Shown here: one piece after another, positions 2,996 to 44,348 of the stretch
How the letters are laid out: each line of letters begins with the position of its first letter
Numbering within the stretch: position 1 is the first letter of the stretch
Assembly (NCBI RefSeq): GCF_050920415.1
Contig: NZ_CP169309.1
Source: Escherichia coli
GTDB lineage: Bacteria; Pseudomonadota; Gammaproteobacteria; Enterobacterales; Enterobacteriaceae
Reading direction: 5' to 3' (one strand)
DNA length: 64,000 bases
Translations under genes and position numbers: made by a program
Notes under the pieces: generated by a model
Seen by the model: the letters and a program-made list of their open reading frames with translations, nothing else
The model's database searches: none
What the model was told of the DNA's origin: nothing

Positions 2996-4204
2996 CGTCC
3001 GCGAAATTACCGACGCAATTACGCAGGCAATCAATAAACCGGGGAGTAGCTGATACTCGCCGGTCATTTCACATATCATCAACGTCGACATAATCGGCGC
3101 GTGCGTGGTTGCCGCCAACAGTGTCGCCATCCCGGTTAATCCGAGTAAGAGTGTAATTTCTTCGCCGTCAGGAAACCATAACCCCAGGCTACGTCCATAC
3201 AACATGCCAATGGCAAGACCGATAAAGAGTGTCGGTGTAAACACACCACCAGGCGCGCCGGAACCGCTACTTGCCAGAACGGCAAACAGTTTGCAAAGGA
3301 AGATCCCGCCAATGATCATAAACAGTGGCGGGGCGGTTAAAAAGGATTGTACGGTGCTATAGCCGTTGCCCCACACGGCGGGGGTGAACAGGGAAAGCAG
3401 ACCCACGATCAACCCGCCGAGTGCCAGTTGCCAGGGGGGCGCAAGTTTGAGAATAACAAATCCTCGATGACTGGCGTTCATTAACGTTAACAACACTGGT
3501 CCGCATAGACCTGCCAGCACACCTGTACTGATAATCAGCGCATAGTCACGAGCCTGAACCGTCACTGAGAGTTGTACGCTGTAGAGTAACGCGTCGCTAT
3601 GATTAATCAGATTGCTAACCAGCAACGCCACGACGGCGGAAATAATCACCGGGCCGAGAGAGGCCAACATCATAGTGCCAAACAGCACTTCGGCTATAAA
3701 TAAACTGTCAGCAAGCGGGGCGCGGTAAGCCGCAGCCATTCCCGCCGCAGCTCCACAGGCAATCCATAATTTCCACTCCTGGCGTGGCGTAAAACGCTGA
3801 GCAAAACAGGAGGCGGCAAGGGCAGCTAAAAGAATCATCGCACCTTCGCGACCAATTGCGCTGCCGCTAGTTACTACCAGCAGAGAGGCAAGCGATTTAA
3901 CCAGGCTTGCTGCGTAATCGAATTTACCATCGGTTTGCAACGCTTCCATGTAATCGGTCGGCGCATGAGGGCGTTGCTGGGTAAATTTCTGCCAGCCCAT
4001 CAACAACAAACCCGCCGCCAGTCCGCCGAGCGCCGGAGTTAGCAGCCGTCGCCACGGAGAAAGATTCGTCGCTGCATTGACCAGACTGCCGGAGTCATTA
4101 TTGAGGAACAGCCATTCCAGTAGCAGCATCGCGTGACGAAACGCGGCAACGGCAAAGGCCGCAAGAATACCGACTATTGTTGCGATAAGCAGACGGCGAA
4201 ACAT
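2948..4204 (-). CDS. clcB: ClC-family voltage-gated chloride channel
   Basis: 418 aa from Met21 of ORF 2948..4264; multi-TM protein with ClC selectivity motifs (GSGIP-like, GREG); 3' end overlaps ynfK convergently. Confidence 0.9.
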
Positions 4205-20677: not shown

Positions 20678-20757
20678 TTTGTTTTAACCTCATTACAGAT
20701 TTAAGGGTGAACAAATCCCTGCCATTGCTGGCATATAAAAATGAAACCGGATATTAA

Positions 20758-20961
20758 TTACGGTGCTGTTTTAAGTCCTGCCGGGATTTCGTTATTGTCC
20801 ATGCGAATAACTTTCTCAACCGGATAACAGTTGCCGGGAATTTTCTGTTCCGCTGCGGCAGCCATGCATTCTTTCATTGAGTCATGTATACCAATAACAA
20901 GATCAACTGGCTCGCCCGTATTAAGAAAAACCGTCAGAACGAGTGCAAATGCTGTATTCAT
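20758..20961 (-). CDS. ydfD: YdfD-like small protein (lysis-associated protein of Qin-type prophages)
   Basis: 67 aa from MNTAFALVLTVFL within ORF 20758..21015; hydrophobic N-terminus; directly downstream of dicB as in Qin. Confidence 0.55.
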   Translation of the reverse strand: MNTAFALVLTVFLNTGEPVDLVIGIHDSMKECMAAAAEQKIPGNCYPVEKVIRMDNNEIPAGLKTAP

Positions 20962-24114: not shown

Positions 24115-24964
24115 AAGCACGGTGTTCGGGGTTTTTTATGAGCAGCAAGCTTCATGGTCTTGTCTGGGAAGGGTGCGCCTTCACCGGCATGATCTTATCC
24201 AGGGTGGCAGTAATGGCTCGCCTTGCAGACTACAGCAATGACGAAGGTGTGTCATGGCCTGCAGTGGAGACCATTCGTCGTCAGATTGGGGCAAAGAGTG
24301 AATCAACGGTTAAAGCGGCGATAGCGGAACTGGAAAAGAACGGCTGGCTGACGAAGGAGGAGCGTAAGGTCGGTGGGCGTAATGAAAGCAATATCTACCG
24401 CCTTAATGTGGAAAAACTCGAAGCAGCAGCTGAGGCGGCGCGTGAGGCATATAAACCGAAAAGAAAAATTAGCCCGGCAAAAAATGACCCGTTAACAGTT
24501 GACCAGTCAAATATTGCCCCCTCAACGGTTGACCCGTCAAATTTTGATGGATCAACCGTTGGTAAAAAACAGCCGGTTAGGGGGGCGATGGTTGGCCCCG
24601 ATCCGTCAGTATTAAAACCTGATCCGTCAGATAAAAGATCTTTTCGTCCGGAAGCTTCGCAACCGGACCCGCAGACGGCTGAACAGGATTTTTTAACCCG
24701 ACATCCTGATGCGGTTGTGTTTAGTGCAAAAAAACGTCAGTGGGGAACTCAGGAGGATTTGGCATGCGCACAGTGGATCTGGGGGCGAATCGTGAGTCTT
24801 TACGAACAGGCCGCCAGCGATGATGGCGAGATCACCCGACCGAAAGAACCCAACTGGACAGCATGGGCCAATGACGTGCGCATAATGCGGATGCTGGATG
24901 GCAGAACTCACAGACAAATCTGTGAACCGCCCCGGGTTTCCTGGAGAGTGTTTTATCTGTGAAC

Positions 24965-25831
24965 TCAGGCTGCCAGATCATTGTTTCCGATGGAAGCATA
25001 ATAAGCTTTTTCTGCTTCTGCCGGAGGAGTATGGCCCAGCCTTCCCAGCAATCGTCGATTGTTATACCAGTCCACCCACGTGAGTGTGGCCAGTTCCACT
25101 TCTGCACGGTTTTTCCAGCTCTTACGGTGTATTACCTCCGCTTTGTAAAGACCATTGATGCTCTCAGCCATCGCGTTGTCATACGAGTCGCCTGTACTCC
25201 CTGTTGATGCCAGCAGTTTTGCTTCTTTTAGTCGCTCCGTATAGGCCAGTGACACATACTGAGAGCCTTTATCGCTGTGATGGATGGTGCCAGACGGACG
25301 ACGGGCCCACAACGCCTGCTCCAGCGCATCCAGCACGAATGTCGTTTCCATAGACGATGAGACCCGCCACCCCACGATGTATCCGGCAAACACATCAATG
25401 ATGAACGCCACATAGACGAAGCCCTGCCATGTGCTGACGTAAGTAAAATCAGCCACCCACAGCTGGTCAGGACGTTCTGCCACGAACTGACGGTTTACGC
25501 GGTCACCTGTGGCAACGGTTTTCCGGCTGACGGTAGTGCGGACCTTTTTACCCCGGAGAACACCGGCAAGTCCCATAACCGCCATGAGGCGCGCCACTGT
25601 ACATCTGGCCACCCTGATTCCTTCCCGTAACAACTGACGCCAGACTTTACGCACACCGTACACCTGATGATTTTCATCGTATACGCGCTGTATCTCTCTC
25701 TTCAGCCAGTCATCGCGCTGCGCACGGGCACTGCGTTTATCAGGATGATGCCGCTGCTGCTGACAATGGTAATACGTTGACGGGGCAATATGCAGTTCAC
25801 TGCATACCGGTCCGACCCCCGTACTGCTCAC
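24965..25831 (-). CDS. IS3-family transposase OrfB (DDE integrase domain)
   Basis: 288-aa ORF with DDE catalytic region; expressed as OrfAB by -1 frameshift. Confidence 0.85.
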   Translation of the reverse strand: MSSTGVGPVCSELHIAPSTYYHCQQQRHHPDKRSARAQRDDWLKREIQRVYDENHQVYGVRKVWRQLLREGIRVARCTVARLMAVMGLAGVLRGKKVRTTVSRKTVATGDRVNRQFVAERPDQLWVADFTYVSTWQGFVYVAFIIDVFAGYIVGWRVSSSMETTFVLDALEQALWARRPSGTIHHSDKGSQYVSLAYTERLKEAKLLASTGSTGDSYDNAMAESINGLYKAEVIHRKSWKNRAEVELATLTWVDWYNNRRLLGRLGHTPPAEAEKAYYASIGNNDLAA

Positions 25832-25852
25832 GCAGCTTATCCAGCAGTGGCA

Positions 25853-26179
25853 TTATTTTTTCCAGAGGCGGTCGAACTCCGCCTTCGCAAAATAAGCGGA
25901 AGCCTGGCGAAGGATATCGTTACTGCGGCGCAGTTCACGATTTTCACGTTCCAGCTCTTTCAGACGCTGACGTTCAGCGGTGGTGAGCCCACCATCACCG
26001 CTCCCGGTATCCCTCTCATGCTGGCGAACCCAGACACGCAGAGTCTCTGGCGTACAGCCAATCTTTGGAGCAATGGAACAAATTGCCGCCCATTGTGAGT
26101 CATATTCGCCCTGACTTTCCAGAACCATACGAACTGCGCGTTGACGGACTTCGGGGGAAAAACGAGTATTTTTAGTCAT
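25853..26179 (-). CDS. IS3-family transposase OrfA (HTH and leucine zipper)
   Basis: 108 aa, [19 protein letters not shown]...; recognised IS629-type OrfA. Confidence 0.85.
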
Positions 26180-26454
26180 CCTGTTTACCTCTTTCTCAGG
26201 AAGTTTAGTCTCCAGGATTTCCGGGGCGGTTCACTGCGAAATGTTTGGTCGGGTACAGCGGGATCCATTCTGGGTAAAAAACATCATGAGCCCGTCAAAA
26301 CTTCGCGATAAATGGGATGAGCTGGTTATCCGTCTGGGGCGTTCGCCTGTACAGCGTTGTGTGAATCATATTTCTGAACCTGACACCGAAATTCCACCAG
26401 GGTTCAGGGGGTAGGTATTGATTTCAGATCATGAGGTAATTTTCAGGAGGACTT

Positions 26455-26877: not shown

Positions 26878-27341
26878 CGAGATTAAAGAGCATTAATACA
26901 TATGTGAATTGACATTTCTGTGGCACAGGGCTAGAACTATTCTCATTGTCAGCGTTGTGCCAGAGTCTGATGTTTGTTGTACATTTGGACGAATAGACGG
27001 CGTTGTTAACTTTAAAAATAACACAGGAACACTTTGAGAAAGTGAACAGGCGTATTTATTTTTTGCTGATGAAGGAGAGTAACTTTAATTTGGGTAATTA
27101 GATTGATAATAGGCCAGACGAAAATAACATTCTGGCACACTTTTGGTCGCTACAGTCATTAGTTAATTTTAAGTGATAAATTTTTATCCATAAGTTAACA
27201 CTAGTGTGTCATCTAGCGAAACCGAATCGCTTTAATCCATAACTTAAAGTTGAATCAGTGGGGTAGCAGTAGGTATGCCGGAACTGATAAACTGTGCAGA
27301 AGGCTAAACATTCATTCACTCGTGAGATAGTAGCATAAATT

Positions 27342-27686
27342 ATGCAAAGAATTATTCCTGATAAAAATTGGTGGGAAAAAGAGCGTATTAATCGTAAAGC
27401 ATCATCAAAATGCCCATATGCTAGTTCATACAGATGTCCTCGGTACTATCAGAGTGTAGTTTTGCTCTCAAGCATCAATATGATAGCTGGTATGGCAACT
27501 AGGAAAGAAAAAGAGTTGGGCGAATTTGGGGAAAGAACTAGTTTCTCATATTTATGTGATGAAGAAGTCCCAACAGTTACTACAAAAGAATATGGCGGCC
27601 TTGCATCAGTTAGTAATTTTTGCCCAGAAATATCATTTAGATATTTACACTATTACGCCGATTATATGTGTAAATATGTTGATTAG
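27342..27686 (+). CDS. hypothetical Cys-containing protein (low-GC cassette A, gene 1)
   Basis: 114-aa ORF in markedly AT-rich DNA after a 460-bp AT-rich non-coding leader; Cys pairs CPY...CPRY. Confidence 0.4.
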   Translation: MQRIIPDKNWWEKERINRKASSKCPYASSYRCPRYYQSVVLLSSINMIAGMATRKEKELGEFGERTSFSYLCDEEVPTVTTKEYGGLASVSNFCPEISFRYLHYYADYMCKYVD

Positions 27687-27755
27687 ATAGATCAGGATAC
27701 TGGCAGGCGTAGTGCGGAAAAAGATAATTTAGAAAATGATTGGAAATATACATGG

Positions 27756-28208
27756 ATGTCAGTCAATCCTAAATTTTATTTAGATTGCGATGTTTTTGAA
27801 AGTGTCAAAAACTTCAATGAAGAATTGGCTAGTGATTACTTAAAGAGATTGCATCCAAATATCATTCAGCAAATAGATAGAATGAATAATTGCTTGGATA
27901 ATAATGACCCTGCGGGTGCACTGCACGCAGCCTCTAATATTCTAGAAACTATGGCGAAGGAAATCACTCAAAACCCGAATGTGGCAAATGAGTCATTGGG
28001 TGGTTTTTTTAAACAGTTCGAAAAAATGTCAAAATTACCTAAGAATCTTATTGATATTGTTAAAGATATTTATGATTTACGCAACAAACTACCTACTGCT
28101 GGACACGGAAGCTTGAACAGGCCTGAATTAACTATGGTAGAAGCTATAACTATTGCGGCAATGACAAAGGCGATTTTAGAAATTGAATATCGAAGCAAAG
28201 CCATCTAA
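27756..28208 (+). CDS. hypothetical protein (low-GC cassette A, gene 2); C-terminal R-N-x5-G-H-G segment possibly HEPN/Abi-like
   Basis: 150-aa ORF; predicted mostly helical; DLRNKLPTAGHGSLNRPE near C-terminus; no confident family assignment. Confidence 0.45.
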   Translation: MSVNPKFYLDCDVFESVKNFNEELASDYLKRLHPNIIQQIDRMNNCLDNNDPAGALHAASNILETMAKEITQNPNVANESLGGFFKQFEKMSKLPKNLIDIVKDIYDLRNKLPTAGHGSLNRPELTMVEAITIAAMTKAILEIEYRSKAI

Positions 28209-28705
28209 CAAACATAAATTATGTGGTTCAAATTCCCGCTATACTTCTGTGTTATTGCCGCCAGCGTCTACTTATCGCTGTGAGTTCAACGGGGCGATGA
28301 TGCGTTAGAGATCTCTGAATCGATTGAAGTCTAAGGTTGTCAGGGCTGTAACAGTAGCCCTGTGTCATGAAAGGATTGCATATTAATTAACGAAGAACAG
28401 ACCAATAGCATTGATAGTTGTTTTCAAAAATAGACCAATAACAAACACGACTGGCCATCTCATCGATTTTCGACAGTATGCAGAAATGGGCGGGATCCAC
28501 ACGCAGTACCAGCTTGCTAAGATAAACGAAAAGGAGACTTTAACCAGTCAGTGGCTGCATGCTGATGGTGATCCGCTATGGGCCGTAGATGTTGTTTGAT
28601 GTACGCAGAAAGAGACGACGAAGGGCACTATGCCGAAAACTAAATCGGTTTTAGAGATTAACCGCGCTGGTGAGCTGGAGTGATTGACTTTTAGAACGCC
28701 AGAAA

Positions 28706-28733
28706 GCAAAAACCTCACAATCGAGTGAGGTTT
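28706..28733. terminator. bidirectional rho-independent terminator between the two accessory cassettes (approximate)
   Basis: Hairpin AACCTCAC-aatcgag-GTGAGGTT flanked by an A-run upstream and T-run downstream; immediately 3' of the minus-strand cassette. Confidence 0.5.
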
Positions 28734-28746
28734 TGTTAAGGGCTTA

Positions 28747-29379
28747 CTATTTTTTGGCAATTAGTGCATGCATCGCCATTTCATGACCTTTTCTGCGAAG
28801 TTTTTTCACACGGGGCTTGAGCCTAGTGAAAGAACTTGGGCTAATTGTCGACTCAGCTTCAACTATATCATTGCGGGGAGCACCCGTTTTAGCATCTTCA
28901 TAGCGGATAAGTATTTTAAACGTGCCCTCATCAACTCCGACACCTTGCAAGTGATGAAGTTTAGATGAAACAGCACCGATTAAATAATCATGAATTCCTT
29001 GCAGGCCCGTTTTACCGATTGGTGAATAGGTATGCAACATATTTGCACCTACAGGAAGGAACTGGCGAAAGTCAGGAACATGCATCTTGTTAACTTCAAC
29101 AGAAGTGTATGCTTTCATGTCAAAAGAAACTCCAGGTTTCCGTGCATTGACTTCTAGCCATTGAGGCAAATCGAGAATATATTTGCTCTCAGCAGTTACT
29201 TCCAGTTTCTTCCTAGACGATAATGTCACGTCCATTACCTGAGCCATATCAGCCATAGAAAGCTCAGCGGCCTTCCGGTTGATGGCTTGTACCCGCTCGC
29301 TCACGTTAGGTCCGAATGCATCGAACAACGAAATTTCAGCAGCTGGTTTAATGGCTTCAGTTTTAACAGACATATACAC
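28747..29379 (-). CDS. hypothetical protein, partner of zeta-like kinase (cassette B, gene 2)
   Basis: 210-aa ORF about 19 nt downstream of the kinase gene on the same strand; no recognisable motif. Confidence 0.5.
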   Translation of the reverse strand: MYMSVKTEAIKPAAEISLFDAFGPNVSERVQAINRKAAELSMADMAQVMDVTLSSRKKLEVTAESKYILDLPQWLEVNARKPGVSFDMKAYTSVEVNKMHVPDFRQFLPVGANMLHTYSPIGKTGLQGIHDYLIGAVSSKLHHLQGVGVDEGTFKILIRYEDAKTGAPRNDIVEAESTISPSSFTRLKPRVKKLRRKGHEMAMHALIAKK

Positions 29380-29398
29380 TCCTTAGATAGGACACTTA

Positions 29399-30097
29399 TT
29401 ATACACCTAAATGCGCTAGATCGCTAACGTCTGAATATGGGCAGCTATGGGAGGTAGTCCAGTTTTCAAGGGTCACGTTAGGAGTATAGTCGACCACGAA
29501 CTGACCATCATTTTCAGGATCTTCCCGTCGATGATAAACATTGAGTGTAAATAGGCCTGCATATTTCGCGAGCATATGTTCAATGGTCTCTCTGCTCTTG
29601 AAAAAGTTCGCTTTAAGAACCTCTAACGGAACCTTACGAGAGCGGGCTTGGGCAAAAACCCACGCGTAAGCCGGATCAAAATAGACGTAATTCAGTGCTA
29701 CCTGATAACCAGCCTTCAGGGCCAGATCAAAGTTTCTCTCCGCAATACCTATACTGGAGAAAGTAGAGTCCATAACAATGGGATAGCCTTCAGATAGCGC
29801 TTTTTTGTAGATAAAATCGACCATTCTGGAGGCAGGTCTCTGATAGTCCACAGAGTTCTCTTCATTGTAGTAGGGGAACCACCAGCGAAAATCATCAGCA
29901 TCAATTCGAACAATGTTTGTGATGCCATGTTGTTCTAAAAGACGATTTAAGAGCTCGGTTTTACCTGCAGCAGGCGAACCAGCCATAAACAGGACGTGCT
30001 TGGCATTGGCATTTTTGTTTGCTGTTACGTAACTATAAACGTAAGGGCGAATTGCCTCACCAAACTCAGGCAGTATGGTTTCAAGTTCTTTTTTCAT
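29399..30097 (-). CDS. zeta-toxin-like P-loop kinase (cassette B, gene 1)
   Basis: 232-aa ORF; Walker A FMAGSPAAGKTEL followed about 20 residues later by RIDADDFR, the arrangement seen in zeta/PezT/AvrRxo1-type kinases; low-GC context. Confidence 0.6.
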   Translation of the reverse strand: MKKELETILPEFGEAIRPYVYSYVTANKNANAKHVLFMAGSPAAGKTELLNRLLEQHGITNIVRIDADDFRWWFPYYNEENSVDYQRPASRMVDFIYKKALSEGYPIVMDSTFSSIGIAERNFDLALKAGYQVALNYVYFDPAYAWVFAQARSRKVPLEVLKANFFKSRETIEHMLAKYAGLFTLNVYHRREDPENDGQFVVDYTPNVTLENWTTSHSCPYSDVSDLAHLGV

Positions 30098-30261
30098 CGG
30101 TAAATCATGCCGTGGTAGTTTTAGTTTTATTTAACAATATCATAAACGTTTAAAGATGGTTACAAATTAGCTAGATTTGTGAGCGCTTTAACCTCTAAAA
30201 CCCTCTGGAACCCAATACCGCTTTTCTGGCTGTCTTTTCAATACGGCATCCAGCGCATCAC

Positions 30262-30600
30262 TTACTCGGTCTGTATGCGGTTCATTGCTGAAGTCGCCAG
30301 TTGCGGGTAAATCTGCATCTCTGCGCCGTTTAAGATTCGCGTATTTACGCGCAAGCGCTCGATGGCTTCATTTTGCTGGTGGCTTTCCTTCCTCGCGGCT
30401 ATTCTAGCTATCTGATTGGCTGCTATGGCCTTTGCCGCTGTCATGGAATGCGCCAGAGTCTTATCCGTCATCATTACACGCTGCGTTTCCAGCATGCTGG
30501 AATGATCTCTTTTTGTTGTTCTTGAAGAAGAACTCTTATTCTTCGGTATATCATTTTGACAGGGGGCAGTGTAAGTATCCCTGCAAAACGAACCATTCAC
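30262..30600 (-). CDS. hypothetical protein (weak call)
   Basis: 112-aa ORF; the C-terminal 70 aa look protein-like, the N-terminal part may be spurious. Confidence 0.3.
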   Translation of the reverse strand: MNGSFCRDTYTAPCQNDIPKNKSSSSRTTKRDHSSMLETQRVMMTDKTLAHSMTAAKAIAANQIARIAARKESHQQNEAIERLRVNTRILNGAEMQIYPQLATSAMNRIQTE

Positions 30601-30610
30601 TTTAACAGAT

Positions 30611-30907
30611 ATGTCAATTTCCGCTCATCGTTCAAAGCGGACTAGAAGGTTAGCTTGCGTCGGACTTGGCGTTTTTAAAGAAGTGCTGGTGGTGACTGGT
30701 TGTTGTGTTCCATTTCTACAGAACAAAATCACAGAAACTATTCCCAATAGTTTTATTGAATCAATGATGAGACAGCCTCATATTTATCAGGACTGGTGTA
30801 CGTCCAATACAGGAGGTTGTCGTGCTGGTTCTCAAATGTGCGCTCGCTATTGCGGCTGTAATGGCAATTTATTGTCTTGCTGTTGTTCTTATGGATCGCC
30901 TTTCTGA
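30611..30907 (+). CDS. hypothetical Cys-rich small protein (weak call)
   Basis: 98-aa ORF; C-terminal 45 aa contain 9 Cys (CRAGSQMCARYCGCNGNLLSCCCSYGSPF); no RBS evaluated. Confidence 0.25.
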   Translation: MSISAHRSKRTRRLACVGLGVFKEVLVVTGCCVPFLQNKITETIPNSFIESMMRQPHIYQDWCTSNTGGCRAGSQMCARYCGCNGNLLSCCCSYGSPF

Positions 30908-37657: not shown

Positions 37658-38083
37658 ATGTTAGGTATTTTCAAAAAGAAAACCCGCAAGGCCATCACAG
37701 AAGTGAAGAAGATGGAGAACCGTGATGCGGTGGAGGCGACCGTCTGGGGCGCATATTCCATTGCATATGCCGACGGCACCTGCGATGCGAAAGAAATCGC
37801 AGTACTGGAGAAAACTATTGCTGCGCTTCCTGCTTTTGCACCGTTCTCTGGTGAGATTGCCCAGATGAGCGCCAATATCCGCGCCCGTTATGAAGCGTCA
37901 CCGCGTAGTGCGAATGCGCATGCATTGCGTGAGCTGGCTGATGTGGCGGGGACAACTGAGGCGGTTGACGTGCTTTGCCTCTGTCTGGATATCGCTGATC
38001 AGGATGGCATTGGTCCGGATGAAGAAGCGCAGCTCAAGAAAATTGCACAGGCGCTTCAGTTACCACTGGAGCAGTATCTGTGA
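37658..38083 (+). CDS. TerB-like (tellurite-resistance TerB family) protein
   Basis: 141-aa ORF; two D-G-x-x-D-x-x-E-like segments (YADGTCDAKEIAVLE, DQDGIGPDEEAQL). Confidence 0.5.
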   Translation: MLGIFKKKTRKAITEVKKMENRDAVEATVWGAYSIAYADGTCDAKEIAVLEKTIAALPAFAPFSGEIAQMSANIRARYEASPRSANAHALRELADVAGTTEAVDVLCLCLDIADQDGIGPDEEAQLKKIAQALQLPLEQYL

Positions 38084-38232
38084 AAAGTGCGGGCCTTGTG
38101 CTGGCTGCCATCCTGTTGTTTCTGGTAGTGGCAGTGGATTTCACTGGATGGCTGATGTCGGTACTGGCTGATGGTGTGCTGGTGGCGATGGTAACGGTCT
38201 TACTCTGGCCTTTACTTCGCAAATCTGAATAA
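38080..38232 (+). CDS. small hydrophobic protein (about 50 aa), possible lysis-associated membrane protein (weak call)
   Basis: GTG overlapping the stop of the TerB-like gene; VKSAGLVLAAILLFLVVAVDFTGWLMSVLADGVLVAMVTVLLWPLLRKSE; below ORF-track size cutoff. Confidence 0.3.
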   Translation: MKSAGLVLAAILLFLVVAVDFTGWLMSVLADGVLVAMVTVLLWPLLRKSE

Positions 38233-38317: not shown

Positions 38318-38710
38318 ATGTCTGAACCCTTATCCGGTTCCGGCACTGCTGTGGCGCTCGGCGGGGCGACGGTATTCGGGCTGTTTACCGGGACGGATTT
38401 CGGGATTGTATTTGGTGCGTTCGCTGGTGCGTTATTTGTGGCAACAATGCCGCAGACACTTTCAGCCTGGCGTGTGGCTGCACATTTTCTGGTGTCCTTT
38501 ATTGTTGGTGTGCTTGGGGCCCGTGGTGTGGCCGGTTACATGGCGGAACGTATTGGGTTTAACAGTGCTTCCGTTGATGCGTTGTGTGCGGTCCTGGTGT
38601 CGGTGCTCTCAGTAAAAGTCCTGTCATTCATCCACCAGCAGGAGATTACATCACTGGTATCCGGTCTGTTCTCCCGTCAGCGTGGAGGAGGTGGTGGTAA
38701 TGACAAATAA
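38318..38710 (+). CDS. putative holin (multi-TM lysis protein)
   Basis: 130 aa from Met11 of ORF 38288..38710 with GGAGA RBS; Gly/Ala-rich TM helices; directly upstream of endolysin. Confidence 0.6.
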   Translation: MSEPLSGSGTAVALGGATVFGLFTGTDFGIVFGAFAGALFVATMPQTLSAWRVAAHFLVSFIVGVLGARGVAGYMAERIGFNSASVDALCAVLVSVLSVKVLSFIHQQEITSLVSGLFSRQRGGGGGNDK

Positions 38711-38978
38711 TCTTCCAGGATTACTGAATGCGGCGTTATGTACGGTTATCGTACTGACGCTTTTTTTCTACCGCAGAAAAGAGTCCCGACACAAACCGCT
38801 GATATCGTGGTGCGCCTGGTGTCTGATGCTGTTGTATGCGATAACGCCGTTAAGTTATCTCTGTGGTCATCCGTTGCCGGCAGACTGGCTGGTAGTGATG
38901 CTGAACCTGGTGTTTGGTGTCATGGTAGTGCGTGCGCGCGGTAATGTTTCAAAAATTTTTGCTTTCCTGAGTGGCTGA
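38700..38978 (+). CDS. second lysis-cassette membrane protein (holin or antiholin-like)
   Basis: 92 aa from Met7 of ORF 38682..38978; GGAGGAGG RBS; three hydrophobic segments; overlaps the holin stop and endolysin start. Confidence 0.5.
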   Translation: MTNNLPGLLNAALCTVIVLTLFFYRRKESRHKPLISWCAWCLMLLYAITPLSYLCGHPLPADWLVVMLNLVFGVMVVRARGNVSKIFAFLSG

Positions 38979-38979
38979 T

Positions 38980-39525
38980 ATGAAATCGAGAGATGAAATT
39001 TTTGATGAAATCCTCGGAAAAGAGGGGGGGTATGTCAGTCATCCTGACGATACAGGCGGAGCGACGAAGTGGGGAATTACTGAAAAAGTGGCGCGCGCGC
39101 ATGGTTACCGTGGTGATATGCGTGATTTGAGCCGCGGGCAGGCTCTGGAAATCCTTGAGGCAGACTATTGGTATGGACCTCGTTTTGACCAGGTGGCAAA
39201 CCTGTCTCCTGATATTGCTGCAGAACTGTGTGATACCGGGGTAAACATGGGGCCGTCGGTAGCCACAAAAATGCTTCAGCGCTGGCTGAATGTGTTTAAT
39301 CAGAAGGGAATGCTGTATCCGGACATAGTTACAGACGGGGGGATCGGGCCGCGAACCATTAATGCGTTACGTTCTTATCTGAAAAATCGCGGCAGGGATG
39401 GCGAACTGGTACTGGTGAAAGCCCTGAACTGTACGCAGGGTGAGCGTTATCTGGCGCTGGCAGAGAAACGCGAGGCTAACGAGTCGTTTGTCTATGGCTG
39501 GATGAAAGAGCGCGTTGGTTTATAA
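38980..39525 (+). CDS. endolysin, glycoside hydrolase family 108 N-acetylmuramidase with C-terminal peptidoglycan-binding domain
   Basis: 181 aa; GH108 signature EGGYVSHPDDTGGATKWGIT near N-terminus. Confidence 0.8.
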   Translation: MKSRDEIFDEILGKEGGYVSHPDDTGGATKWGITEKVARAHGYRGDMRDLSRGQALEILEADYWYGPRFDQVANLSPDIAAELCDTGVNMGPSVATKMLQRWLNVFNQKGMLYPDIVTDGGIGPRTINALRSYLKNRGRDGELVLVKALNCTQGERYLALAEKREANESFVYGWMKERVGL

Positions 39526-39537
39526 ACTCATCGAAAA

Positions 39538-39562
39538 GGTCACTTCGGTGGCTTTTTTATTG
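39538..39562 (+). terminator. rho-independent terminator after endolysin (approximate)
   Basis: GGTCAC-TTCG-GTGGC with UUCG tetraloop followed by TTTTTT. Confidence 0.45.
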
Positions 39563-39726
39563 TTCAAAAAACGAAAGAACGGAGGTACGTATGTACGCAC
39601 TGAAAAAGATTACGGTAACTGAAGATGGTCGTCAGTAGACTGGCCCCCTGAATCTCCAGACAACCAGTATCACTTAAATAAGTGATAGTCTTAATACTAG
39701 TTTTTAGACTAGTCATTGGAGAACAG

Positions 39727-40092
39727 ATGATTGATGTCTTAGGGCCGGAGAAACGCAGACGGCGTACCACACAGGAAAAGATCGCAATTGTTCAGCAGAG
39801 CTTTGAACCGGGGATGACGGTCTCCCTCGTTGCCCGGCAACATGGTGTAGCAGCCAGCCAGTTATTTCTCTGGCGTAAGCAATACCAGGAAGGAAGTCTT
39901 ACTGCTGTCGCCGCCGGAGAACAGGTTGTTCCTGCCTCTGAACTTGCTGCCGCCATGAAGCAGATTAAAGAACTCCAGCGCCTGCTCGGCAAGAAAACGA
40001 TGGAAAATGAACTCCTCAAAGAAGCCGTTGAATATGGACGGGCAAAAAAGTGGATAGCGCACGCGCCCTTATTGCCCGGGGATGGGGAGTAA
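39727..40092 (+). CDS. insC: IS2 transposase InsC (OrfA)
   Basis: 121 aa from [18 protein letters not shown]...; recognised IS2 InsC. Confidence 0.9.
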
Positions 40093-40955
40093 GCTTAGTC
40101 AGCCGTTGTCTCCGGGTGTCGCGTGCGCAGTTGCACGTCATTCTCAGACGAACCGATGACTGGATGGATGGCCGCCGCAGTCGTCACACTGATGATACGG
40201 ATGTGCTTCTCCGTATACACCATGTTATCGGAGAGCTGCCCACGTATGGTTATCGTCGGGTATGGGCGCTGCTTCGCAGACAGGCAGAACTTGATGGTAT
40301 GCCTGCAATCAATGCCAAACGTGTTTACCGGATCATGCGCCAGAATGCGCTGTTGCTTGAGCGAAAACCTGCTGTACCGCCATCGAAACGGGCACATACA
40401 GGCAGAGTGGCCGTGAAAGAAAGCAATCAGCGATGGTGCTCTGACGGGTTCGAGTTCTGCTGTGATAACGGAGAGAGACTGCGTGTCACGTTCGCGCTGG
40501 ACTGCTGTGATCGTGAGGCACTGCACTGGGCGGTGACTACTGGCGGCTTCAACAGTGAAACAGTACAGGACGTCATGCTGGGAGCGGTGGAACGCCGCTT
40601 CGGCAACGATCTTCCGTCGTCTCCAGTGGAGTGGCTGACGGATAATGGTTCATGCTACCGGGCTAATGAAACACGCCAGTTCGCCCGGATGTTGGGACTT
40701 GAACCGAAGAACACGGCGGTGCGGAGTCCGGAGAGTAACGGAATAGCAGAGAGCTTCGTGAAAACGATAAAGCGTGACTACATCAGTATCATGCCCAAAC
40801 CAGACGGGTTAACGGCAGCAAAGAACCTTGCAGAGGCGTTCGAGCATTATAACGAATGGCATCCGCATAGTGCGCTGGGTTATCGCTCGCCACGGGAATA
40901 TCTGCGGCAGCGGGCTTGTAATGGGTTAAGTGATAACAGATGTCTGGAAATATAG
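40050..40955 (+). CDS. insD: IS2 transposase InsD (OrfB, DDE)
   Basis: 301-aa ORF; recognised IS2 InsD; overlaps insC for -1 frameshift fusion. Confidence 0.9.
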
Positions 40956-41236
40956 GGGCAAATCCAGTCAGGTTGAGGAAGTGCATGTCCTGGGGGGATA
41001 TGTATCGTATGGAGTTTTACCCGCGTAATACCCATCTGGCAGCAAAAATTGAGTATTGCCGGAACGGGAATATTTCATGTTTGCAGGTAGAGAAAACGGA
41101 TGAGGCTTATATCACTACGCTGAACGGCGATACGATGTCAGCGCCAATGATATAAGACAGTAATTCACCATTTGGATTGTCCGCTCCACCCAACATGTTG
41201 TTTCCTTAAGGTTCCTACACCACAAAGGGAACACTC

Positions 41237-43202
<1,966 letters not shown>

Positions 43203-43419
43203 TGACCAATAGCGGACATTAAAAATGGCGAAAAACGGCCAATAATCTTGGCGTTGACAACGATGCGTTGCATCTGTCGCGGCGACAGTAAAGCCCGGAA
43301 TGAAATGGCCAGATGTCGTACTCATACCAGTGAATAACAAGTAAAACCCCGGCGGCTGAAACAACCAAGGGGTTAACAGTGTAAATAAAACTGCCCATAT
43401 TGATGGGCAGCGCATGTAA

Positions 43420-43713
43420 TTATTGTGAGCAATAGACCCGAGCTTCAAGCGGAGTATAAATGCCTAAAGTAATAAAACCGAGCAATCCATTTACGAATGT
43501 TTGCTGGGTTTCAGTTTTAACAACTTTATCTGCGCCACCACAAATTTTGGCTGCATCGACAGTTTTCTTCTGACCAATTCCTGAAACGAAGAAATGATGA
43601 GTGATGGTTTCCTTCGGTGTTACTGTTGTAGGTTTGTTTTCAACTGTAAACGTCTGTTGAGCACATCCAGAGATAAGCAGCGCCAGTGTGAAAGTGAGTA
43701 GCGTTTTTTTCAT
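43420..43713 (-). CDS. bor: Bor lipoprotein (serum-resistance protein of lambdoid phages)
   Basis: 97 aa; lipobox LLISGC; near-identical over most of its length to recalled lambda Bor. Confidence 0.9.
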   Translation of the reverse strand: MKKTLLTFTLALLISGCAQQTFTVENKPTTVTPKETITHHFFVSGIGQKKTVDAAKICGGADKVVKTETQQTFVNGLLGFITLGIYTPLEARVYCSQ

Positions 43714-43937: not shown

Positions 43938-44348
43938 TTAGCGTGGAAAAATTTGAGTCGTGTTCTGGATGCTTTCGGTAAACAATAATGAGTTGTCAAA
44001 GGTATAGTAATATCTTTTGTGTTCGTGGATATTTGTAACCCATCGGAAAACTCCAGCTTTAGCCAGATTTACCCTGTATTCATGAAATGTGATTTCTCTT
44101 GATTTCAACTTATGAAGGTAAGTTTCTATAAGTCGCGTGTCTCTGCAAAAGCTAACATGAATAACATCATGGAAACCTTTTATTAACACCGTGTTATCGC
44201 TCTCAAATACAATGTGAATATTACCTGTGGCTAAATAGTAAATGTAATGTGAGACATTGTGGCGTTTTAGTTCAGAGTAAAACCGGTCACAGTTTAAATC
44301 TTTCCGCACTTGATCAAATATTTCTTTAAAAATGGCAACCTGAGCCAT
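43938..44348 (-). CDS. DUF1398-family protein (YbcV-like)
   Basis: 136-aa ORF adjacent to bor, same arrangement as borD-ybcV in DLP12. Confidence 0.65.

Follow-up and report, generated by a model that had tools for sequence, protein, structure and literature searches.

The segment between the endolysin gene and bor in a lambdoid prophage of Escherichia coli is very probably a decaying part of the late operon, in which one gene of the phrog_33497 family was broken in three nested steps; no recoding is involved, and the spanins are missing separately. The analysis covered a stretch of 64,000 nucleotides, referred to here as the window. First, one G was inserted into a G5 run, probably by replication slippage, shifting the frame at codon 24 and introducing a stop after 33 codons. 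ISEc62 then inserted near codon 70, duplicating ACGA, and IS2 followed after codon 15, duplicating GTCAG; these two later insertions were probably selectively neutral. As a separate matter, a bor-DUF1398 module occupies the place of the membrane-protein/lipoprotein segment of sister prophages, leaving the lineage without spanins. Insertion and decay by known elements in this manner is ordinary prophage decay.

The prophage occupies the window from about 16.6 kb to its end. In the alignment it was colinear with the prophage of E. coli strain 357900, whose genes run in the order integrase, Q, lysis genes, terminase, head, and tail. A segment of ~3.6 kb (26962-30616) with several ORFs on both strands did not align to this otherwise colinear prophage and resembles a variable cargo region. 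The lysis cassette lies on the plus strand. Its first gene encodes a putative holin of the Phage_holin_8 family (38318-38710; PF16931, E = 3e-22; phrog_198 holin), for which the start position was taken from the RefSeq annotation of an identical relative. It is followed by a second holin gene of the Phage_holin_3_7 family (38700-38978; PF05449, E = 4e-21; phrog_217 holin) and by the gene for an endolysin with GH108 and PG_binding_3 domains (38980-39525; PF05838, E = 2e-25; PF09374, E = 9.5e-25), an assignment shared by the RefSeq annotation of relatives. The endolysin carries neither a signal sequence nor a SAR sequence. Just 5' of the holin genes, also on the plus strand, lies a moron pair (37658-38232) that recurs in many related loci and consists of a TerB-family gene (37658-38083) and a DUF3927/TciB-like gene for a 50-residue membrane protein (38080-38232). 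Downstream, the bor module comprises the bor lipoprotein gene (43420-43713) and a DUF1398 family gene (43938-44348; named after the RefSeq annotation of identical relatives), both on the minus strand. The genes for the small and large terminase subunits follow on the plus strand from ~45.1 kb. The slot after the two-holin/GH108 cassette appears to be a cargo hot spot because Rac-SA53 carries heat-labile enterotoxin IIa genes directly 3' of the same cassette (L014, 4815-5955).

A terminator-like hairpin with a T run was found by consensus scan on the plus strand (hairpin 39528-39551, extending to 39561), between the endolysin gene and a gene of 93 codons. Comparison of 39528-39561 with the corresponding upstream regions of the related loci L003, L004, and L005, which are 86-88% identical at the DNA level, showed that the pairing is retained; a single compensatory change from A-T to G-C keeps it intact in the diverged relatives (GGTCAC/GTGGCT versus GGTCGC/GCGGCC). 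The 35 nucleotides separating the hairpin from the ATG are nearly invariant among the same three relatives. The 93-codon gene begins ~40 nucleotides past the hairpin with ATG 39591, which is preceded by a GGAGG ribosome-binding site. It points in the same direction as the lysis genes, and the consensus scan gave no promoter-like site of its own.

The gene lies in three pieces on the plus strand. The first (39591-39635) comprises codons 1-15 (MYALKKITVTEDGRQ), and its last five bases, GTCAG, are the target of IS2, a member of the IS3 family. As assigned by its ends, its target duplication, and its identity to annotated copies, IS2 spans 39636-40966 (plus strand, 1331 bp) and is flanked by GTCAG at 39631-39635 and again at 40967-40971. 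Its ends are canonical (TAGACTGGCCCC... and ...GGGGCAAATCCA), and over its full length it is 99.9% identical to copies annotated as "IS3-like element IS2 family transposase." It showed every hallmark of IS2, namely a length of ~1331 bp with terminal inverted repeats, a 5-bp duplication, and two overlapping ORFs, orfA (39727-40092) and orfB (40050-40955), with the A6G slippery site AAAAAAG for -1 frameshifting at 40044-40050. The original prediction that IS2 with a GTCAG duplication cuts a real short gene just after the endolysin terminator was thus borne out by the element ends, the duplication, and the start codon with its ribosome-binding site.

The second piece (40972-41135) runs from codon 16 to approximately codon 70 and contains a G6 run at 40992-40997. 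It ends at an ISEc62-type element of the IS21 family (41136-43259, plus strand, 2124 bp), identified by its identity to annotated ISEc62, its ends, and its duplication. The window copy shares 98.4-99.9% identity with copies listed in RefSeq as "IS21-like element ISEc62 family"; its ends (TGTCAGCGCCAA... and ...TTGGCGTTGACA) are of the TG...CA type with repeated TGTCCGCT-type motifs, and the 4-bp sequence ACGA flanks it at 41132-41135 and 43260-43263. Consistent with the IS21 family, terminal inverted repeats and a duplication in the range of 4-8 bp were accompanied by istA (41237-42283, plus a shifted remainder) and then by an intact istB for the helper ATPase (~42405-43202). Judged against three other ISEc62 copies, istA has lost 1 bp (42250-42262), and because this deletion, near 42257, frameshifts the gene and truncates IstA at 348 residues, the window copy is probably not autonomous. 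Either a genuine mutation or a mistake in the assembly could account for the deletion. The real gene resumes beyond the element with its third piece (43264-43337), in which a Met codon is completed across the ISEc62 junction and the last 24 codons (...MRCICRGDSKARNEMARCRTHTSE) are followed by the TAA stop codon at 43335-43337; this piece is colinear with the intact protein WP_160454477 of strain Ceylon31. ISEc62 was therefore inserted inside the same gene as IS2. An IS21-family element beside IS2 had been predicted correctly, but as merely adjacent to the gene, whereas its ACGA duplication places it within. Likewise, the proposed ORF of about 50 codons in the +1 frame follows a genuine protein frame, but its end at 41155 is not that of the gene: the last five codons, which close it as SAPMI*, are ISEc62 inverted-repeat sequence.

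The two elements were excised in silico, each together with one copy of its duplication, and the resulting 937 bp were searched in complete E. coli genomes. Ten complete genomes contained this empty site, four with 100% and six with 99.4-99.9% identity, and in all ten it is annotated as a GH108 protein, a hypothetical protein, and Bor. GTCAG and ACGA are each present in a single copy at the IS-free site of the ten genomes. Because the empty site exists in these genomes, both insertions and their exact boundaries are confirmed; the comparison with IS-free relatives proposed at the outset thus located the gene exactly at the predicted position. Strain MFDS1022581 lacks IS2 but has the G6 run, and its ISEc62 copy sits at precisely this site between two copies of ACGA. 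Hence, IS2 was the last event. None of the 5,426 complete E. coli genomes in the search contained the IS2 junction. The data establish that G5 became G6 first, that ISEc62 followed, and that IS2 came last, and they likewise establish the IS boundaries, the duplications, the empty site, and the ancestral G5 state.

When the rejoined gene was translated with the G6 run, frame 0 ended with TAA after 33 codons and the +1 frame after the run was open, exactly as had been described from the interrupted sequence. With a G5 run it encodes a 93-residue protein. This repaired protein matched phrog_33497 over its full length (E = 2.8e-50), its residues 1-92 aligning with positions 1-94 of the 95-position profile. 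No Pfam family was recovered, the only NCBIfam match was a chance one at E = 0.1, and PADLOC returned nothing. A sequence-profile search of the PDB yielded only chance matches to the Rubisco small subunit (E = 0.04 or worse). The protein is hydrophilic (GRAVY -0.69) and carries zero net charge, with 14 basic (K+R) and 14 acidic (D+E) residues and a pI of 6.8; no transmembrane or hydrophobic segment, signal peptide, or lipobox was detected in it. A confident AlphaFold2 model (pLDDT 85.5) predicted a seven-stranded antiparallel meander followed by a short, poorly conserved C-terminal helix, for which structural searches gave generic beta-sheet matches only and a Foldseek search against BFVD gave none at E = 1e-3 or better. 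The family is characterized by the conserved motifs MYALK..T...G..VE...LG..Y.LE and DEAYITTL.G.TVR..CRG. It forms ~30 clusters at 90% identity, the named ones coming from E. coli, Salmonella, Edwardsiella, and Xenorhabdus, and only 20 representative clusters were found among 1.84 billion proteins. The best statement is that the protein is a late-expressed soluble accessory protein of unassigned role.

The G run was compared among relatives at increasing distance. The sequence around the site reads CTGGGGGGATAT in the window, and the shift of frame begins at codon 24. Strain 357900 (100% identical) also has G6, and its gene is annotated as "frameshifted" in RefSeq; the run of strain Ceylon31 (99.4% identical) is G5, and its gene is annotated as intact, encoding the 93-residue WP_160454477. 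G6 was counted in nine of the ten empty-site genomes, for seven of the nine from the length of the 937-bp alignment and for 357900 by inspection, and altogether in 10 of the 11 complete genomes of the lineage and in all four bor-linked IMG/VR loci. Four homologues at 80-88% identity, one of them in phage phiSTEC1575-Stx2k, are all uninterrupted ORFs of 282 bp. Three of the four read CTGGGGGAT (L-G-D), in which CTG GGG GAT constitutes a G5 run, and the phiSTEC1575-Stx2k copy has a shorter run because Asn replaces Asp. Intact genes among 80 IMG/VR loci read GGGGGAT, GGGGAAT, GGGAGAT, GGGTCGC, or other variants, which indicates that the G run itself is not conserved. Within this collection, G6 was restricted to the four bor-DUF1398 loci. 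Pairwise dN/dS values of 0.08-0.21 were obtained in a single frame, with constraint on both sides of the run. Because intact homologues have G5 or broken runs, it is deduced that G6 is a +1 insertion inherited in one nearly clonal prophage lineage; the G6 genomes being nearly identical (99.4-100%), one inherited event explains the frequency of the allele. A tolerated or even favored loss would also make G6 as common in the lineage as it is.

These comparisons bear directly on two other explanations of the extra G. The original prediction had suggested that the gene may itself need a frameshift at the poly-G tract, and the run might accordingly be a programmed +1 ribosomal frameshift site or else a phase-variable (contingency) switch for the 93-residue protein. 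The +1 frame after the run is indeed the conserved protein frame, most members of the bor-linked lineage carry G6, and the rarity of GGA, a relatively rare Gly codon in E. coli, might favor slippage. A programmed site would be expected to conserve both its slippery sequence and a two-frame architecture, whereas neither Ceylon31 nor any of the diverged homologues examined requires a shift, a single continuous frame is under selection, and the run is G5 or broken, as in GGGGAAT, GGGAGAT, and GGGTCGC. By eye, no stop codon or other pause site lies beside the run, and RefSeq treats the allele as a pseudogene. A prfB-like +1 frameshift was considered and rejected by eye for want of a slippery codon beside a stop codon. 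Only two run lengths were seen, with G6 confined to near-identical prophages, which argues for a single event and against switching. A functional role of G6 is accordingly very improbable, and the run does not serve as a recoding signal, although some spontaneous +1 slippage on GGG-GGA at a low level would be compatible with the sequence. Alternatively, the extra G could be a homopolymer sequencing error in a gene that was intact before the IS insertions. Indels of this type are common in long-read assemblies, and the ISEc62 copies of MFDS1022581 show such indels, but the window shares G6 with four IMG/VR contigs and with 10 complete genomes that different laboratories produced independently. 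Moreover, truncated products of 51-58 residues, 86-98% identical to half of the protein, are called in other E. coli assemblies, as expected for a broken gene. We regard a sequencing error as extremely improbable and retain the reading of an inherited G insertion as the first break in the gene.

The contexts of the family were collected from the 80 IMG/VR loci and a few genome loci. Approximately 49 of the 80 contain, in this order, holin8, holin3_7, an M15 or GH108 endolysin gene, sometimes a small Cys-rich gene, the phrog_33497 gene, genes for a ~60-residue membrane protein and a 60-residue lipoprotein, and terminase. In two of these ~49 close-branch loci a lambda-like Rz gene follows the phrog_33497 gene instead of the membrane-protein/lipoprotein pair. 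In ~14 loci the gene lies 5' of holin and lysozyme genes, usually followed by an Rz-like gene; Rz1 was embedded in Rz in the one such locus inspected in detail. Fifteen IMG/VR loci have the gene between MuF-like head-morphogenesis and scaffold/capsid genes, away from lysis genes (L080-L093, L097, L098; e.g. L080, 3971-4246), and one copy adjoins PerC/ProQ/SSB genes. Rac-SA53 and phiP27 possess the same two holins without a phrog_33497 gene. The feature shared by these contexts is co-orientation in late operons and not the lysis step. A Cys-rich protein of 68-71 residues (...DHEVH...GC...CC..CHTS) is repeatedly encoded directly 5' of the phrog_33497 gene, in loci that include those of E. coli and Edwardsiella (L005, ~3216-3420, as an insert between the endolysin gene and the 93-codon gene; L011, 4717-4932; L013, 3332-3538). 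The literature on phiSTEC1575-Stx2k and Rac-SA53 yielded nothing relevant.

No Rz/Rz1-like gene was detected in the window by tblastn with lambda Rz and Rz1 and the phiP27 spanin calls, none of which gave a match with E < 0.1. A heuristic lipobox scan of window positions 16000-64000 returned Bor only, no homologue of the phiP27-type lipoprotein or of its small membrane-protein neighbor was found in the window, and no spanin is annotated in the whole prophage of the IS-free relative. An Rz/Rz1 remnant between the stop codon of the gene and bor was likewise rejected: the interval amounts to ~80 bp (43338-43419), in which tblastn finds nothing. An i-spanin has an N-terminal transmembrane segment and a periplasmic coiled coil; the repaired protein has no hydrophobic segment and is predicted to consist of seven beta strands and one short helix. 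As for an o-spanin, which is a small lipobox-bearing lipoprotein whose gene lies within or beside that of the i-spanin, the lipobox scan offered only Bor, and nothing in the window resembled Rz1 or the phiP27 o-spanin.

The phiP27 pair is listed as the shortest known two-component spanin, with o-spanin record coordinates of 20706-20861 (Kongari et al. 2018, PMC6139136). This o-spanin turned out to be the lipoprotein whose gene follows the phrog_33497 gene in sister prophages. In these sisters, a protein of ~57-60 residues with a C-terminal hydrophobic segment is encoded directly 5' of the 60-residue phiP27-type lipoprotein with lipobox LLVGC (L003, 3567-3924; L005, 3855-4376; L006, 6354-6711; L015, 5041-5229), and L005 additionally encodes a 44-residue protein with an N-terminal transmembrane segment. 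The i-spanin called for phiP27 by Kongari et al. is a different ORF, beginning with TTG and overlapping another on the antisense strand; which protein truly pairs with the very short phiP27-type "o-spanin" may therefore need re-examination. Homology between the window and the sister prophages ends ~25 bp past the stop codon of the gene, where the bor module begins. Because the bor-DUF1398 module holds its place, the spanin-like pair is, as read from sequence comparison, absent by module replacement and not displaced by the IS elements. Of the two possibilities raised originally for the lack of recognizable spanins, absence or displacement, the former was supported by tblastn, the lipobox scan, and the annotated relative, and the latter yielded to the bor-DUF1398 replacement. 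The designation of the site as the spanin position was apt in that most relatives have the gene between the endolysin gene and the membrane-protein/lipoprotein pair; in the window lineage, bor and DUF1398 occupy that place.

Given this neighborhood, the 93-residue protein might itself be a component of the lysis cassette that replaces spanins or else assists or regulates the outer-membrane step; its loss would then be linked to the loss of the spanin-like pair. The position directly after the endolysin gene in ~49 of the 80 loci, usually before the small membrane protein and the phiP27-type lipoprotein, would suit such a role, as would the orientation shared with the lysis genes and the missing promoter, and the lineage that lacks the lipoprotein pair is the one in which the gene decayed. 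Several observations argue against it. Transmembrane segment, signal peptide, and lipobox are all missing from the protein, which is neutral and predicted to be beta-rich, unlike spanins and the cationic phiKT disruptin; ~14 loci carry the gene 5' of complete holin-lysozyme-Rz cassettes; in the 15 head-gene loci and in the copy by PerC/ProQ/SSB it is placed elsewhere altogether; and Rac-SA53 and phiP27 manage the two holins without it. Because this soluble, beta-rich, neutral protein also occurs beside classic Rz/Rz1 cassettes or in head-gene modules, it is deduced not to be a spanin substitute, and a lysis-cassette function in general is unlikely. It is also quite unlikely that the phrog_33497 family supplies late-phase accessory factors with a functional link to envelope disruption by phiP27-type cassettes and that the gene decayed here because bor-DUF1398 had already replaced the membrane-protein/lipoprotein pair. 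Stepwise decay of the gene, with separate loss of the spanin-like pair, thus remains the preferred explanation.

A third insertion sequence of the IS3 family (24923-26233, minus strand, 1311 bp, 3-bp CTG duplication), which we take to be IS629-like from its terminal repeats and orfA, splits a replication-region gene starting at 24138, the product of which is a helix-turn-helix domain protein according to the annotation of the relative. Considering this element, the 3.4 kb of IS DNA within the late operon, and the spanin-less lysis cassette, the window prophage is most likely defective. The locus matters little biologically, but it provides a clean example of stepwise prophage decay with a reconstructable order of homopolymer indel, ISEc62, and IS2. 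Two practical lessons follow: when an ORF seems readable only by frameshifting at a short G run, relatives should be compared before recoding is proposed, and IS ends can supply false ORF ends. A minor lead is phrog_33497 itself, a small, narrowly distributed family under purifying selection that has no assigned function and whose genes belong to the late operons of enterobacterial phages, Stx2 phages among them.

In comparison with known systems, the window IS2 differs from known IS2 in its insertion site alone, and the ISEc62 copy measures 2124 bp against 2125 bp in known ISEc62. The window copy of phrog_33497 is a pseudogene in three pieces, in contrast to the full-length family profile; phage phiSTEC1575-Stx2k carries a homologue. 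The prophage resembles spanin-less phages such as phiKT in having no identifiable spanin and a gene for a small signal-less protein beside the endolysin gene. The phiKT gp28 "disruptin" is described as a cationic antimicrobial peptide (bioRxiv 10.1101/515445). Instead of a short, strongly cationic peptide, the 93-residue protein has as many acidic as basic residues, zero net charge, and a beta-rich model, and it coexists with Rz/Rz1 in other phages. The closest counterpart is the phiP27-type lysis cassette, which consists of two holins, an M15 or GH108 endolysin, and a very short "spanin" pair (Kongari et al. 2018, PMC6139136). The window holins belong to the same two families and are 76-80% identical at the DNA level to those of phiP27, phiSTEC1575-Stx2k, and Rac-SA53, and the window lineage carries bor and DUF1398 where its sisters carry the phiP27-type small membrane protein and lipoprotein.
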